Assembly (NCBI GenBank): GCA_002733415.1
Contig: NVVR01000002.1
Coordinates: 1-64,000, forward strand
Length of the DNA: 64,000 nt
Direction: 5' to 3'
Source: Kordia sp.
GTDB taxonomy: Bacteria; Bacteroidota; Bacteroidia; Flavobacteriales; Flavobacteriaceae
Positions 11,323-23,023 of this stretch are shown one piece after another. The position numbers and the translations under genes were made by a program. Position 1 is the first letter of the stretch; every line of letters starts with the position of its first letter. The notes beneath the pieces were generated by a model. That model was not told where the DNA came from. It ran no database searches and saw only the letters and a program-made list of their open reading frames with translations.

Positions 11323-11345
11323 ACTACGCAAAAAGACTGCGCAAT
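11323..11345. promoter_or_regulatory. Palindromic operator-like motif ACTACGCA-N7-TGCG(Y)A, copy a, in the divergent promoter region
   Basis: actacgcaaaaagactgcgcaat. Related copies are at 12784-12806 (perfect) and 22997-23023. Confidence 0.4.
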
Positions 11346-11385
11346 AAGGTCGAATATTTGTACTGTTATTAAAAAAGAAATAAAA

Positions 11386-12774
11386 ATGAAAGTCACAGGA
11401 AAGACATTAATCGATTTAGGATTTAGAGAGGGAAGATGGTTTAAGGATGCATTAGCACATATAAATGAGAACGAACTTGAGGGAGAATTACTAACGAATT
11501 ATTTAGATCAATATAAAATGCCGCCAATTCAAGAGCTACATAAAGAAGCAATGGCATTTTCGATAAATATAAAAGCAGAAAATGAATTAGAGGCACAAAA
11601 TGTTGATTCAGTAGTATCCTCCATGGAAAAATTAATGCGAACACCAACAGTAGTTGATGGCGCTATTATGCCAGATGCTTGTCCGGCAGGACCATCAGGA
11701 ACTATACCAGTGGGTGGAGTGGTAGTGACAAAAAATGCAATTCACCCAGGAATGCATAGCGCAGATATTTGCTGTTCTGTGATGCTGACAGATTTTGGAA
11801 AAGCAGATCCTAAAGAAGTGTTAGATGCTGCACATGAAAGCACTCATTTTGGTCCAGGAGGAAGAAGTAGAGAACATCAGTTCCGATTCCCTGATGAGTT
11901 GTTAACCGCGTTTAAAAGTAATTTTTTCTTAAACAATGATAGGTTACTAGGAATGGCCAGAACTCATTTAGGGACCCAAGGAGATGGAAATCATTTTTTG
12001 TTTGTAGGGAAATCGAAGAAAACAGGGAATACAATGATGATTACACACCATGGGTCAAGAGGACCAGGAGCATTGTTGTATAAAAGAGGAATGCAGATTG
12101 CGGAGCAATTTAGAAAGGATATTTCTCCAGAAACCTTAAAGCAAAATGCTTGGATTCCATATAACACTGAAGAAGGGGAGAAATATTGGGAAGCATTGCA
12201 AATAATGAGAACCTGGACTAAGAAAAACCATACCTGTATTCATGATGCTGTTTGTGAAAAAGTAGGAAAGCTACCTGAGGATAGGTATTGGAACGAGCAT
12301 AATTTTGTGTTTAAAAAAGGAGACTTGTTTTACCATGCCAAAGGAGCTACTCCATTAGATGAAGCATTTATGCCAGATATTACAGGTCCAAGATTGGTTC
12401 CTTTAAATATGTCGGAACCAGTGTTAATTGTTTCGGGAAAAATTACTGCGAACAATTTAGGATTTGCACCTCACGGAGCAGGTAGAAATATGAGTAGAAC
12501 ACAACATAAAAAGACGAAAGCGGAATTCACCAATGAGGAAGTTTTTGCCTTGGAAACAGAAGGTTTGGATGTGCGTTTTTATTCTAATGAAATTGATGTT
12601 TCTGAATTGCCAAGTGCCTATAAAAATGCAGGAAATGTAAGAGCTCAAATGGAAGAATTCGGTTTAGGAGAAGTGATTGATGAAGTAATGCCATATGGTT
12701 GTATCATGGCTGGAGATTTTCAGAAAAATGCGCCGTGGAGAGTGAAAAGAAGAAATAGACATAAGAGAAGTTAA
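11386..12774 (+). CDS. Divergent paralog of the RtcB-family RNA 3'-phosphate/2',3'-cyclic-phosphate ligase
   Basis: The RtcB metal-site motifs are present: D.C (HSADICCSV), [19 protein letters not shown] and [10 protein letters not shown]. The usual PDAH motif reads PDACPAG (His to Cys). There is an N-terminal extension of about 90 aa. Confidence 0.85.
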
Positions 12775-12783
12775 ATAAAGATA

Positions 12784-12806
12784 ACTACGCAAAATGACTG
12801 CGTAGG
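12784..12806. promoter_or_regulatory. Palindromic motif ACTACGCA-aaatgac-TGCGTAG, perfect copy, between the rtcB paralog and the NTase gene
   Basis: An 8-bp inverted repeat with a 7-nt spacer. It could be a DNA operator or an RNA stem-loop. Confidence 0.45.
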
Positions 12807-12843
12807 TTGTTTTCATCTTTGACAGGTAATTAAAAAAGAGAAA

Positions 12844-13590
12844 ATGAAAACAGCAATATTAAATAAGTTAGCAAGCATAGAAAAGAAGAAAAATATAGAG
12901 ATACTTTTTGCTTGTGAGTCAGGAAGCAGAGCATGGGGCTTTGCTTCCCCGGATTCAGATTATGATATCCGTTTTATATACAAACATAAAACTGAGTGGT
13001 ATTTGAATTTATGGGAGAAAAAAGATACTATAGAATTTATGACCGCTGAAGATTTGGATGGATCTGGTTGGGATTTACGAAAAGCAACACTCTTATTAGC
13101 AAAGTCTAATGCCTCATTATTGGGTTGGTTGTTTTCGCCAGTAATATATAGAGCTGATGAATCTTTTTTAAAAGAAATACAAACGCTAGCAAACGAAAAC
13201 TTTAATCCAGTAGCTGGTTTTTATCACTTTCATTCTATGAGCAAGAGTTTCTTAGATAAAGTAATTGAAGAGGAAGTGAGTTTAAAGAGTTTTTTTTATG
13301 CTTTAAGAACTACGTTATGTAGTAATTGGATATTGAAAAACGGAACTATTCCTCCAGTTGTATTTGCAGAGTTGCTAGTTTTAGTAGATGCAGATATAAA
13401 GGTAGCAATAGAAGAGCTAGTGGCAATAAAAGCAACTAAAAATGAAAGCTTTCAAGCCTTAAAAAACGATACTTTATTTAACTATTTGAAAGACATGATA
13501 ACAAAAAATAACTTGAATAGAAATTCAGTTTTATTAAATAAAGCTGATGGAGAATCGTTCAATGAATTCTTTTTAAAAACAGTAGTGTGA
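12844..13590 (+). CDS. Pol-beta-superfamily nucleotidyltransferase (RlaP-like candidate), copy 1
   Basis: NTase signature GSRAWGFASPDSDYDIRFIY (GS...D.D). It lies immediately downstream of the RtcB paralog. Confidence 0.6.
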   Translation: MKTAILNKLASIEKKKNIEILFACESGSRAWGFASPDSDYDIRFIYKHKTEWYLNLWEKKDTIEFMTAEDLDGSGWDLRKATLLLAKSNASLLGWLFSPVIYRADESFLKEIQTLANENFNPVAGFYHFHSMSKSFLDKVIEEEVSLKSFFYALRTTLCSNWILKNGTIPPVVFAELLVLVDADIKVAIEELVAIKATKNESFQALKNDTLFNYLKDMITKNNLNRNSVLLNKADGESFNEFFLKTVV

Positions 13591-14657
13591 TGACTATAGC
13601 AGAATTAAAGAAATCGGGAAGCATCATATTTGAATGTATAAGCGGTAGTCGAGCATACGGACTTGACACCGCTACATCCGATACGGATATACGAGGTGTC
13701 TTTATTGCACCAAAAGAGCAGTTTTACGGATTACATTATACCGATCAAGTAAATGATGAAACCAATGATGTTGTGTATTATGAGCTTAAAAAGTTTATAG
13801 GATTGTTATTAAAAAACAACCCAAACATCATGGAGTTATTAAACATGCCAGAGGAATGTATTTTATATAAACATCCTTTGTTTGATTTAATAAAAAAGGA
13901 ATTATTTTTATCAAAACTGTGTAGAAATACGTTTGCTAATTATGCTTTTACACAAATTAAAAAGGCAAGAGGATTGAATAAAAAAATAGTGAATCCTGTT
14001 GATCAGAAAAGAAAGTCTGTAGAAGATTTTTGTTATGTAAGAACAGGGAAACAATCAGTTTTGTTAAGGGGTTTTTTAAATATGAATCAATTAAAAAGTT
14101 CCGATTGTGGTTTGGCAAAAATTACTCATATGAAAGACTGTTATAACCTCTTTCACAATGTATACTTGGACTATAACGGAATAGCTAGAAATGACGCCAA
14201 CGAAGTTTGTTTGAGTTCTATTCCTAAGGAAGAAACTCCTATAGGGTTATTGTATTTTAATGTAGATGGATACTCATCATATTGCAAGAGATACAAAGAA
14301 TATTGGTCATGGGTAGCTAAACGAAATGAAGAACGGTATAAAAGTAATATTTCACATAGTAAAAATTACGATGCTAAAAACATGATGCATACTTTTCGGT
14401 TATTGCATATGGCAAGGGAAATTGGATTAAAAGGCGTCATAAATGTGAGGCGTTCTGATCGAGATTTTCTACTAGCAATAAAAAATGCTGAGTTTGAATA
14501 TGCTGAGTTGGTTGAAAAAGCAGAAGTATTACGACAAGATTTGGATAAAATTTATGAAAGTACAGATTTAATGGAGAAACCAGATGTAGCACTAGTGGAT
14601 AAGCTATTACTGAAATTAAGAGCTATCTATTATGAACAAAGAGTAGAGAAAGACTAA
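13587..14657 (+). CDS. Pol-beta-superfamily nucleotidyltransferase, copy 2 (paralog of the upstream gene)
   Basis: GSRAYGLDTATSDTDIRGVF. Its start overlaps the upstream stop by 4 nt, consistent with translational coupling. Confidence 0.6.
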   Translation: MMTIAELKKSGSIIFECISGSRAYGLDTATSDTDIRGVFIAPKEQFYGLHYTDQVNDETNDVVYYELKKFIGLLLKNNPNIMELLNMPEECILYKHPLFDLIKKELFLSKLCRNTFANYAFTQIKKARGLNKKIVNPVDQKRKSVEDFCYVRTGKQSVLLRGFLNMNQLKSSDCGLAKITHMKDCYNLFHNVYLDYNGIARNDANEVCLSSIPKEETPIGLLYFNVDGYSSYCKRYKEYWSWVAKRNEERYKSNISHSKNYDAKNMMHTFRLLHMAREIGLKGVINVRRSDRDFLLAIKNAEFEYAELVEKAEVLRQDLDKIYESTDLMEKPDVALVDKLLLKLRAIYYEQRVEKD

Positions 14658-14732
14658 TTAGTAATTCTAACGAGCCTTTTTTCTTACTTTTGAGAATAAA
14701 GTAAAAGCATATTTCAATAAACCAAATCTGAA

Positions 14733-22688: not shown

Positions 22689-22759
22689 TGACTTGTGATG
22701 TAATGGTAGCATATAAGATTTTGATTCTTATTGTATAGGTTCAACTCCTGTCAGGTCAA
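22689..22759 (+). tRNA. tRNA-Gln (anticodon TTG)
   Basis: Acceptor tgacttg/caggtca. Anticodon arm taaga-ttTTGat-tctta. T-arm atagg-ttcaact-cctgt. Confidence 0.65.
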
Positions 22760-22766
22760 CTATTAA

Positions 22767-22792
22767 CTGGGAATATAACGATGTTTACCCGC
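22767..22792 (+). other. 5'-half relic of the tRNA-Pro-like gene
   Basis: ctgggaatataacgatgtttacccgctt matches 22207-22245, then diverges. Confidence 0.5.
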
Positions 22793-22836
22793 TTGCTTGA
22801 GATGTTATTAAGTAAAGCCCTATATGAAATCTAAAT

Positions 22837-22900
22837 GTCACACTGAGCTTATCGAAGTGCAATTGATAGTCAAGGTTTTATTGGTTTTCGCGAAGCTCAG
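22837..22900. repeat. REP-like hairpin element, copy 2
   Basis: gtcacactgagcttatcgaagt pairs with ttcgcgaagctcag. Confidence 0.5.
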
Positions 22901-22907
22901 ACAAAAT

Positions 22908-22980
22908 GGTGTTTTCAGCTTATTTGGTAAAGTGCTAGACTGTGAATCTAGAGAACAGGGTTCGAATCCCGAAAACACCC
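22908..22980 (+). tRNA. tRNA-His (anticodon GTG) with an encoded G-1
   Basis: Extra 5' G. Acceptor gtgtttt/aaaacac. Discriminator C. D-arm gctt-atttggta-aagt. Anticodon arm ctaga-ctGTGaa-tctag. The T-stem is imperfect. Confidence 0.6.
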
Positions 22981-22996
22981 AAAATTAAAATAACCT

Positions 22997-23023
22997 ATAC
23001 TACGTAAAATGATTGCGTAGTAG
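22997..23023. promoter_or_regulatory. Palindromic motif, copy c (actacgta-aaatgat-tgcgtagt)
   Basis: The same ACTACGCA-N7-TGCGTAGT family as at 11323 and 12784. Confidence 0.4.

Follow-up and report, generated by a model that had tools for sequence, protein, structure and literature searches.

A repeated 23-nucleotide site in an RNA-repair island of Kordia is probably the operator of the neighbouring WYL-domain regulator

The first 64,000 nucleotides (nt) of contig NVVR01000002.1 of Kordia sp. (assembly GCA_002733415.1), here called the window at this full length, contain three copies of a 23-nt inverted-repeat motif within an island of RNA-repair genes. The motif is most probably a double-stranded DNA operator for the dimeric regulator encoded next to it, a protein with winged helix-turn-helix (wHTH), WYL and WCX domains, and is embedded in a predicted sigma-A promoter cassette; we infer the binding of the regulator from the comparison of related loci. 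An operator for this WYL regulator had been suggested by the original prediction, a reading of the Kordia sequence alone, and the comparison supports it strongly, with a fixed register to the predicted -7 box of the promoter, a constant orientation towards genes, the linkage to a divergent WYL gene and the predicted fold of the WYL protein. One cassette would precede each transcription unit of an island for the response to RNA damage, which in the window would be three units: the RtcB paralog, the RlaP nucleotidyltransferase genes, and a YrlA-like RNA probably together with a Band7 gene.

The search of the window with the pattern ACTACGCA-N7-TGCGTAGT, allowing up to three mismatches, returned three matches, all on the plus strand, and 100 dinucleotide shuffles used as control gave a mean of 0.05 matches, with three or more matches in none of them. 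The match at 11323-11345 deviates from the pattern at two positions and those at 12784-12806 and 22999-23021 at one position each. The 19-nt core including the spacer was found at the same three positions only. With the weight matrix built from relatives, the three sites scored 33-35 bits, and the next best site in the 64 kb scored 9 bits. The spacer sequence is conserved too, therefore the unit is a sequence motif of 23 nt and not merely a pair of arms. The arms pair at six of eight positions in copy 1, at seven of eight in copy 2 (ACTACGCA/TGCGTAGG) and at seven of eight plus a T:G in copy 3. An 8-bp inverted repeat occurring three times, as originally described, is thus present in three copies that are not due to chance, but none of them is perfect, including the one at 12784-12806 that had been taken for a perfect palindrome, and the conservation extends into the spacer. 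Copy 1 lies in the divergent intergenic region and copy 2 between the RtcB paralog and the nucleotidyltransferase (RlaP) gene, both as stated before; for copy 3 the location after tRNA-His stands and the coordinates change from 22997-23023 to 22999-23021. The similarity among the copies, as delimited with a repeat finder, extends over approximately 63 nt: 8 nt after the motif follows AATATTTG, CATCTTTG or GAAGTTTG and then (T)GTAATTAAAA, and for copies 1 and 2 an ATG is located about 20 nt further downstream.

The relatives used for comparison were four close metagenome loci, Dokdonia pacifica, Flavobacterium litorale and 80 genomes fetched via the RtcB paralog, which is 72-78% identical across many Flavobacteriaceae; the RtcB-anchored genomes cover the Flavobacteriaceae, Crocinitomicaceae and Saprospiraceae. 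Sites were counted in 84 non-redundant sources (1.6 Mb) with the weight matrix mentioned above and with reversed-sequence controls. The matrix found 168 sites above 14 bits and none in the controls, and a mismatch scan of the relatives yielded 178 sites (172 on the gene strand), with none in the reversed controls at three or fewer mismatches. Among the 162 sites scoring at least 20 bits, 158 are oriented along the gene strand. The consensus from the 84 sources, ACTACGCAAAAWNATTGCGYANT, is a 9-5-9 inverted repeat (ACTACGCAA-N5-TTGCGTAGT), in which the promoter-distal arm is better conserved and the promoter-proximal arm systematically more degenerate. The density in the relatives is about two sites per 21-kb locus. 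Genes located behind gene-oriented sites are those for the RtcB paralog, RlaP, Ro60, a CCA-like nucleotidyltransferase, Band7, tRNAs and YrlA-like RNAs, with 77 sites upstream of RtcB-paralog orthologs and 13 upstream of RlaP orthologs. The order of the genes behind the cassettes varies among the loci.

The motif is part of a cassette of about 45 nt. In 153 of the 162 sites the sequence nAnnTTTG follows after 8-9 nt, and TTTG begins 11 or 12 nt past the motif; the A (position 32) is present in 94% of the sites and a purine at position 43, 5 nt past the G, in 91%. The flavobacterial sigma-A box TAnnTTTG occupies -12 to -5 (PMC9723704). Its first T is depleted here, being present in only 8/162 sites. 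The columns in which the TTG of the -33 box is expected, about 19 nt before the -7 box, read C-A-A-A-A-W-N, with A at positions 9-11 in 94-98% of the sites, and TTG is not there. Assuming a transcription start about 5 nt past the -7 box, the operator spans approximately -42 to -20 with its centre at about -31. Judged from the aligned sites, it stands where the -33 box is missing. Protein start codons are found 50-70 nt from the start of the motif at 48 sites. In 29 of 48 loci the strand facing the WYL gene has a TAnnTTT box 13-14 nt past the operator, suggesting a divergent, WYL-ward promoter that shares the site. The atlas of transcription start sites of F. psychrophilum has no entry for RtcB or WYL.

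Specificity was assessed with 78 metagenome stretches that were selected by the exact consensus motif alone and have a median length of about 4 kb. Homologs of island proteins are encoded in 63 of them (81%), namely WYL in 48, RtcB in about 25, Band7 in 11, RlaP in 8 and Ro60 in 7. The TTTG register is kept at 86 of the 91 sites in these stretches and is still present in 12 of the 15 stretches without an island homolog; read by eye, the neighbours in the latter include what look like a Hen1-type RNA methyltransferase and AAA-type ATPases. None of 2.9 million viral contigs contains a match. In the window all three copies lie inside the island, and by these comparisons the motif appears locus-specific across the scanned window, the flanks of the related loci and the motif-selected contigs.

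The candidate regulator matches the Pfam families WYL (47 bits, cut-off 21.8) and WCX (47.2 bits, cut-off 23.9). Orthologs with 54-71% identity, all of them divergent from the RtcB paralog, are present in 78 of 88 related sources. A site is located 24-41 nt from the WYL start codon in 51 of 68 loci. In five further sources including the window the nearest site is 644-661 nt away from the WYL start, a gap of about 650 nt that fits the insertion of a homolog of the 212-amino-acid (aa) open reading frame (ORF) orf212. The N-terminal 80 residues of the WYL protein are nearly invariant among orthologs. In the AlphaFold2 (AF2) model, with a predicted local distance difference test score (pLDDT) of 77, helices at residues 2-19, 27-42 and 50-61 and a beta hairpin at 71-81 (pLDDT approximately 80-86 there) form a winged helix. 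Foldseek aligned the model over its full length, about 340 columns, with DriD (3e-14), PafBC (1e-11) and CapW and BrxR (1e-6 to 1e-7). A sequence profile of the protein compared with the Protein Data Bank (PDB) matched with its WYL-WCX part only (DriD, E = 1e-7), and phmmer of the WYL protein against PDB gave no match. According to the model, the candidate regulator is a protein with wHTH, WYL and WCX domains, and since sequence matches of the N-terminal part are insignificant, the wHTH is assigned from the predicted fold.

Between the WYL gene and operator copy 1 lies orf212, which has no Pfam or NCBIfam family and is probably co-transcribed with the WYL gene. Homologs were found in only six of the RtcB-anchored sources; F. 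columnare, with a motif site in its locus (L166 in our numbering of loci), has a 203-aa ORF at the equivalent position. Promoter P1 behind copy 1 probably also drives the divergent orf212-WYL operon, and because copy 1 is common to this operon and the RtcB paralog, we propose autoregulation. In Olleya, Lacinutrix, Algibacter, Psychroserpens and relatives (L020, L046, L060, L062, L072, L073, L076 and L083) the WYL protein has about 573 aa, about 230 aa more than that of the window; a PhyH domain (PF05721) is present in P0207 and P0237, two database homologs of comparable length. A short SSB gene (111 aa, 9158-9493) adjoins the WYL gene in the window, an arrangement otherwise found only in the closest relatives, L001-L003.

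Table 1. Operators, predicted promoter boxes and neighbouring features in the window. Promoter targets are predicted.
Feature	Position	Strand	Remarks
wHTH-WYL-WCX regulator, candidate motif binder	9636..10661	-	Pfam WYL and WCX
212-aa ORF (orf212), function unassigned	10663..11301	-	between WYL gene and operator copy 1
Operator copy 1, ACTACGCAAAAAGACTGCGCAAT	11323..11345	+	divergent intergenic region; 35.4 bits; orthologous site in L001 and most related loci
Predicted -7 box AATATTTG, promoter P1	11353..11360	+	predicted start ~11365; ATG of RtcB paralog 11386
RtcB paralog (RNA ligase family), P1 target	11386..12774	+	Pfam RtcB
Operator copy 2, ACTACGCAAAATGACTGCGTAGG	12784..12806	+	10 nt past RtcB stop codon; 33.2 bits
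Predicted -7 box CATCTTTG, promoter P2	12814..12821	+	predicted start ~12826; RlaP ATG 12844
Two RlaP nucleotidyltransferases, P2 targets	12844-13590 and 13587-14657	+	Pfam RlaP, 236 and 96 bits
DUF434/DUF5616 protein	14733-15446	+	
RtcB2 and PrfH	16599-18723	+	
TPR protein	18728-19279	+	
RNase T-like exonuclease	19850-20443	+	
Array of seven tRNAs and tRNA fragments	21773-22980	+	
Operator copy 3, ACTACGTAAAATGATTGCGTAGT	22999..23021	+	19 nt past tRNA-His, points downstream; 34.1 bits
Predicted -7 box GAAGTTTG, promoter P3	23029..23036	+	predicted start ~23041
YrlA-like tRNA-mimic RNA (T-arm, acceptor-like hairpin, D-arm)	23205..23326	+	~165 nt past predicted P3 start
Band7/SPFH gene, probable distal P3 member	23730..24830	+	Pfam Band_7

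The site belongs to a known kind, the palindromic operator of an HTH-WYL-WCX factor. SiwR from Mycobacterium smegmatis is a homodimeric WYL activator whose 19-bp palindrome lies in a divergent region, between the -10 and -35 elements (PMC10693628). Here as there, a regulator with HTH-WYL-WCX architecture is encoded divergently from its targets across a short intergenic region, and an imperfect palindrome of about 19-23 bp is located between -10 (or -7) and -35 (or -33). SiwR controls two DinB-like genes in response to genotoxic stress (PMC10693628), whereas the site described here is repeated before several RNA-repair units with a -7/-33 type promoter and is bound only putatively. PafBC uses a -26 element in a process termed sigma adaptation, and its target promoters lack the -35 box (PMC8635444). 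In common with the Kordia cassette, the downstream core box is kept and the upstream box is missing, the site is placed directly upstream of the core box (8-9 nt here), and PafBC is one of the top structural matches (E = 1e-11). In contrast to the regulator described here, PafBC is a heterodimer or fusion that acts on an asymmetric element in DNA repair (PMC8635444); the single gene and the symmetric 9-5-9 site argue for a homodimer in Kordia, the candidate regulon is one of RNA repair, and activation would work as in PafBC only by analogy.

DriD from Caulobacter crescentus binds a 20-bp palindromic operator, also at its own promoter, and single-stranded nucleic acid bound at the WYL domain activates it (PMC9186387). 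It is the closest solved structure (Foldseek 3e-14 over the full length; WYL-WCX profile E = 1e-7), although sequence identity is only about 16%, and the DriD site, which stops at -36, leaves an intact -35 box downstream of it, whereas the site here replaces the -33 box. The BrxR operator consists of 11-5-11 inverted repeats (PMC9122601). BrxR and CapW are likewise HTH-WYL-WCX dimers with an inverted repeat around a 5-bp spacer and more than one box per island; however, their boxes are located downstream of the -10 box and repress, whereas those described here are upstream of the -7 box in a fixed register, and the structural match is weaker (E about 1e-6). Concerning the target genes, the closest parallel is RtcR, which together with sigma-54 controls rsr-yrlBA-rtcBA in Proteobacteria (PMC7790460). 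There, one ligand-sensing regulator beside the operon controls RtcB, Ro60 and YrlA-type RNAs (PMC7790460), and the sites described here precede RtcB, Ro60 and YrlA-like RNAs, with control being predicted. Promoter type, regulator family and operator differ between the two, and neither a sigma-54 activator domain nor a CARF-AAA+ sigma-54 activator was found among the 19 ORFs scanned in the island (6.6-26.6 kb).

Whether the motif might act in RNA, as a stem-loop of 8-9 bp between cistrons for processing, stability or termination, had been left as an alternative by the original prediction. The arms are complementary, some of the mismatches are G:U on the plus strand, and copies 2 and 3 follow a gene on the same strand, so that read-through transcription is possible. 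A functional stem should covary, however, and here the mutual information of the paired columns is about 0 (permutation p 0.3-1). The A4:C20 mismatch occurs in 42 of 135 distinct sites compared with 4 compensated G:C pairs, and pair 7-17 shows 12 T:G, 5 C:A and 1 T:A. Observed pairing is 82.7% versus 82.1% after shuffling, and the covariation score of 0.079 (shuffled 0.069) was reached by 27 of 500 shuffles. In addition, one arm, the promoter-proximal, is more degenerate than the other, the spacer sequence is conserved, no U-tract follows downstream, and many sites including copy 1 are in divergent regions, have no upstream gene on the same strand and lie upstream of the predicted transcription start. 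The RNA reading is therefore rejected, since the arms vary independently and the sites precede the predicted start, and we regard it as very improbable. Highly unlikely is also a generic dispersed repeat of the REP type, a site of recombination by which gene cassettes are shuffled, or a binding site for some other factor encoded elsewhere. The cassette does stand before many different genes in variable order, as mobile cassettes do, some loci with sites have no WYL gene within 10 kb, and the scans covered no complete genome. Yet all three window copies are inside the island, the related loci carry about two sites per 21 kb, RNA-repair or WYL genes accompany the motif in 63 of the 78 selected stretches despite their median length of about 4 kb, and the viral contigs gave zero matches. 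The strict -7 register and the gene orientation are properties of promoters and not of recombination sites, and no recombinase is among the genes annotated around the window copies (6.6-26.6 kb). Since 81% of the motif-selected stretches carry genes of the RNA-repair island, the motif is probably not a generic REP, and this possibility is rejected within the data scanned, which are the window, the 1.6 Mb of related loci, the metagenome stretches and the viral contigs.

A more serious alternative, which we nevertheless consider less likely, keeps both the operator and the WYL protein and makes the latter a repressor similar to BrxR and CapW, which blocks RNA polymerase until a signal of damage or infection arrives. 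The operator at -42 to -20 overlaps the core promoter, a classic position for a repressor, and the site is also common to the regulator's own divergent promoter. The BrxR inverted repeats share the 5-bp spacer and repress (PMC9122601), and WYL repressors of defence islands are described as common (PMC13622015). On the other hand, the targets lack the -33 TTG and have the first T of the -7 box in only 8/162 sites, which is typical of weak, activator-dependent promoters; the predicted fold is nearer to DriD and PafBC (3e-14 and 1e-11) than to BrxR and CapW (1e-6 to 1e-7); and SiwR and PafBC activate from the same position. An activator is thus slightly favoured over a repressor, because the targets lack the -33 box and their -7 box is weakened, because the closest matches of the predicted fold are the activators DriD and PafBC, and because SiwR and PafBC act from this place. 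Several points weigh against a WYL activator operator. A site centred at about -31 would suit a repressor as well, and the sequence does not decide the sign of regulation. Some site-bearing loci, for example those of Dokdonia (L005 and L008), have no WYL gene within 10 kb. The match of the N-terminal domain to HTH_11 is weak (E = 0.018), and a comparison of the N-terminal 100 residues with PDB sequences gave nothing significant. The specificity of the motif was derived only from locus flanks and motif-selected contigs. Finally, the RtcB2-PrfH operon and the tRNA array of the window have no site, therefore the island is not one simple regulon.

As an activator, the WYL protein would replace the missing -33 contact in a manner similar to PafBC and SiwR, and its WYL domain may sense a signal of nucleic-acid damage, for example cleaved tRNA or RNA ends. 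Cleaved RNA as the signal is a reasonable guess, made by analogy with the sensing of single-stranded DNA by DriD and PafBC and of damaged tRNA by RtcR (PMC7790460). Going one step further, the WYL protein might be the Bacteroidota counterpart of RtcR, a sensor of RNA damage with a PafBC-like sigma adaptation and a modular regulon, an idea that we put forward tentatively and hold to be possible rather than probable. As such a counterpart, its WYL domain would bind cleaved fragments of tRNA or rRNA, or YrlA-like decoys that are under its own control, and sigma-A polymerase would be recruited to promoters without a -33 box. The regulon would then comprise RNA ligases, enzymes for end healing and end filling, Ro60, Y-like RNAs, spare tRNAs and the Band7 protein. 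If this is true, no earlier WYL factor would have been shown to react to damaged RNA, as opposed to phage or damaged DNA, and sigma adaptation would for the first time be known from outside Actinobacteria.

The three window sites differ in what they head. Copy 2 is predicted from its position to control both RlaP genes through P2, perhaps also the DUF434/DUF5616 gene. Copy 3 follows the tRNA array and faces away from it. The original prediction had linked the tRNA array and the RtcB operon into one regulon; sites indeed head three units, the first with the RtcB paralog and the second with the RlaP genes, but copy 3 does not head the array. The order of tRNA array and then site recurs in L001, L022, L036, L121 and L088, and in L110, L131 and L147 a site is located 75-86 nt directly before a tRNA gene. 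The third unit probably contains the YrlA-like RNA and the Band7 gene, the latter as a presumed co-transcribed distal member. The Rfam model YrlA (RF02553) scores 33.8 bits (E = 1.7e-5) at this RNA, below the gathering score of 69; the tRNA-like module aligns well, whereas the closing stem fails to align. At 23260-23326, overlapping the YrlA-like element, a tRNA model reaches 37.3 bits. Sub-threshold YrlA matches of 31-42 bits are found between site and Band7 gene in seven independent metagenome loci, and the order of motif, about 500-1000 nt of non-coding sequence and Band7 in L088, L094, L096, L099, L110, L121, L147 and L156. A search of the window for a Ro60 gene found none.

After the YrlA-like module a second tRNA-like element is located at 23343-23418 (tRNA model 19.7 bits, E = 0.25); because of this second, weaker element the P3 transcript may carry more than one tRNA mimic. 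Two adjacent YrlA-like matches each are present in L121 and L147. The array itself encodes tRNAs for Cys(GCA), Tyr(GTA), Asp(GTC), Leu(TAG), Arg(ACG), Gln(TTG) and His(GTG). Anticodon nucleases cleave some of these types: colicin E5 targets the tRNAs for Tyr, His, Asn and Asp, and colicin D those for Arg. Since several of the encoded tRNAs are such classic targets, the array may supply spare tRNAs. Arrays of tRNA genes also adjoin the island in L001, L018, L022, L036 and L121. Within the array of the window, a unit of about 80-83 nt is repeated in tandem three to four times at 22209-22530, and each ends in a sequence like the 3' half of a tRNA (GGTTCGAATCCTGCTTCTCAGACGA); these units are tRNA fragments or pseudo-tRNAs.

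The switching of RNA-repair operons is understood only for the proteobacterial RtcR/sigma-54 system. In the literature that we searched for WYL in connection with RtcB, RNA repair or Bacteroidetes, neither the site nor a WYL-controlled RNA-repair regulon and its members are described. WYL genes are reportedly mentioned as companions of RNA-repair genes in comparative-genomics work. By its sequence the 23-bp site defines a candidate regulon in Flavobacteriaceae, Crocinitomicaceae and Saprospiraceae, consisting of the RtcB paralog, RlaP, the CCA-like nucleotidyltransferase, Ro60, YrlA-like RNAs, tRNAs, the Hen1-like enzyme, Band7 and several proteins with unassigned function. A likely regulator can be named, and F. 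columnare is a tractable organism for tests. Should the regulator turn out to activate by replacing the -33 contact, a PafBC-type mechanism would be extended to the unusual Bacteroidota promoter.

Several protein families without known function are found directly behind a cassette in the relatives, for example at L023 11390, L058 11374, L020 2677, L005 5765 and L049 14308. They are families of about 589 aa, about 200 aa and about 235 aa, and DUF6331, the first of them behind a leader of about 268 nt. All four are candidate members of the RNA-damage response, and the 589-aa protein and DUF6331 are thereby flagged, together with orf212, as candidate components. Another leader is present in about half of the RtcB-anchored loci, in which the site is located about 125 nt before the RtcB start with a conserved, hairpin-rich sequence in between (gtaccggaatcataaagaagccggttc.ccgacttc; for example L022 9858-10000 and L036 9864-10000). 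It matches no Rfam family at gathering score and is absent from the window.

A non-coding block of about 650-800 nt is present twice in the window, at 15456-16110 after the DUF434/DUF5616 gene and at 20562-21345 after the RNase T-like exonuclease gene, with 76-91% identity between the two. It has no convincing match in Rfam, the best one reaching 27.8 bits compared with a gathering score of 43 for that family, and it contains a terminator-like hairpin (aatttggacgcttttttt). Unrelated to the motif, a Flavo-1 RNA (Rfam RF01705, 52.4 bits) is located at 54354-54475.

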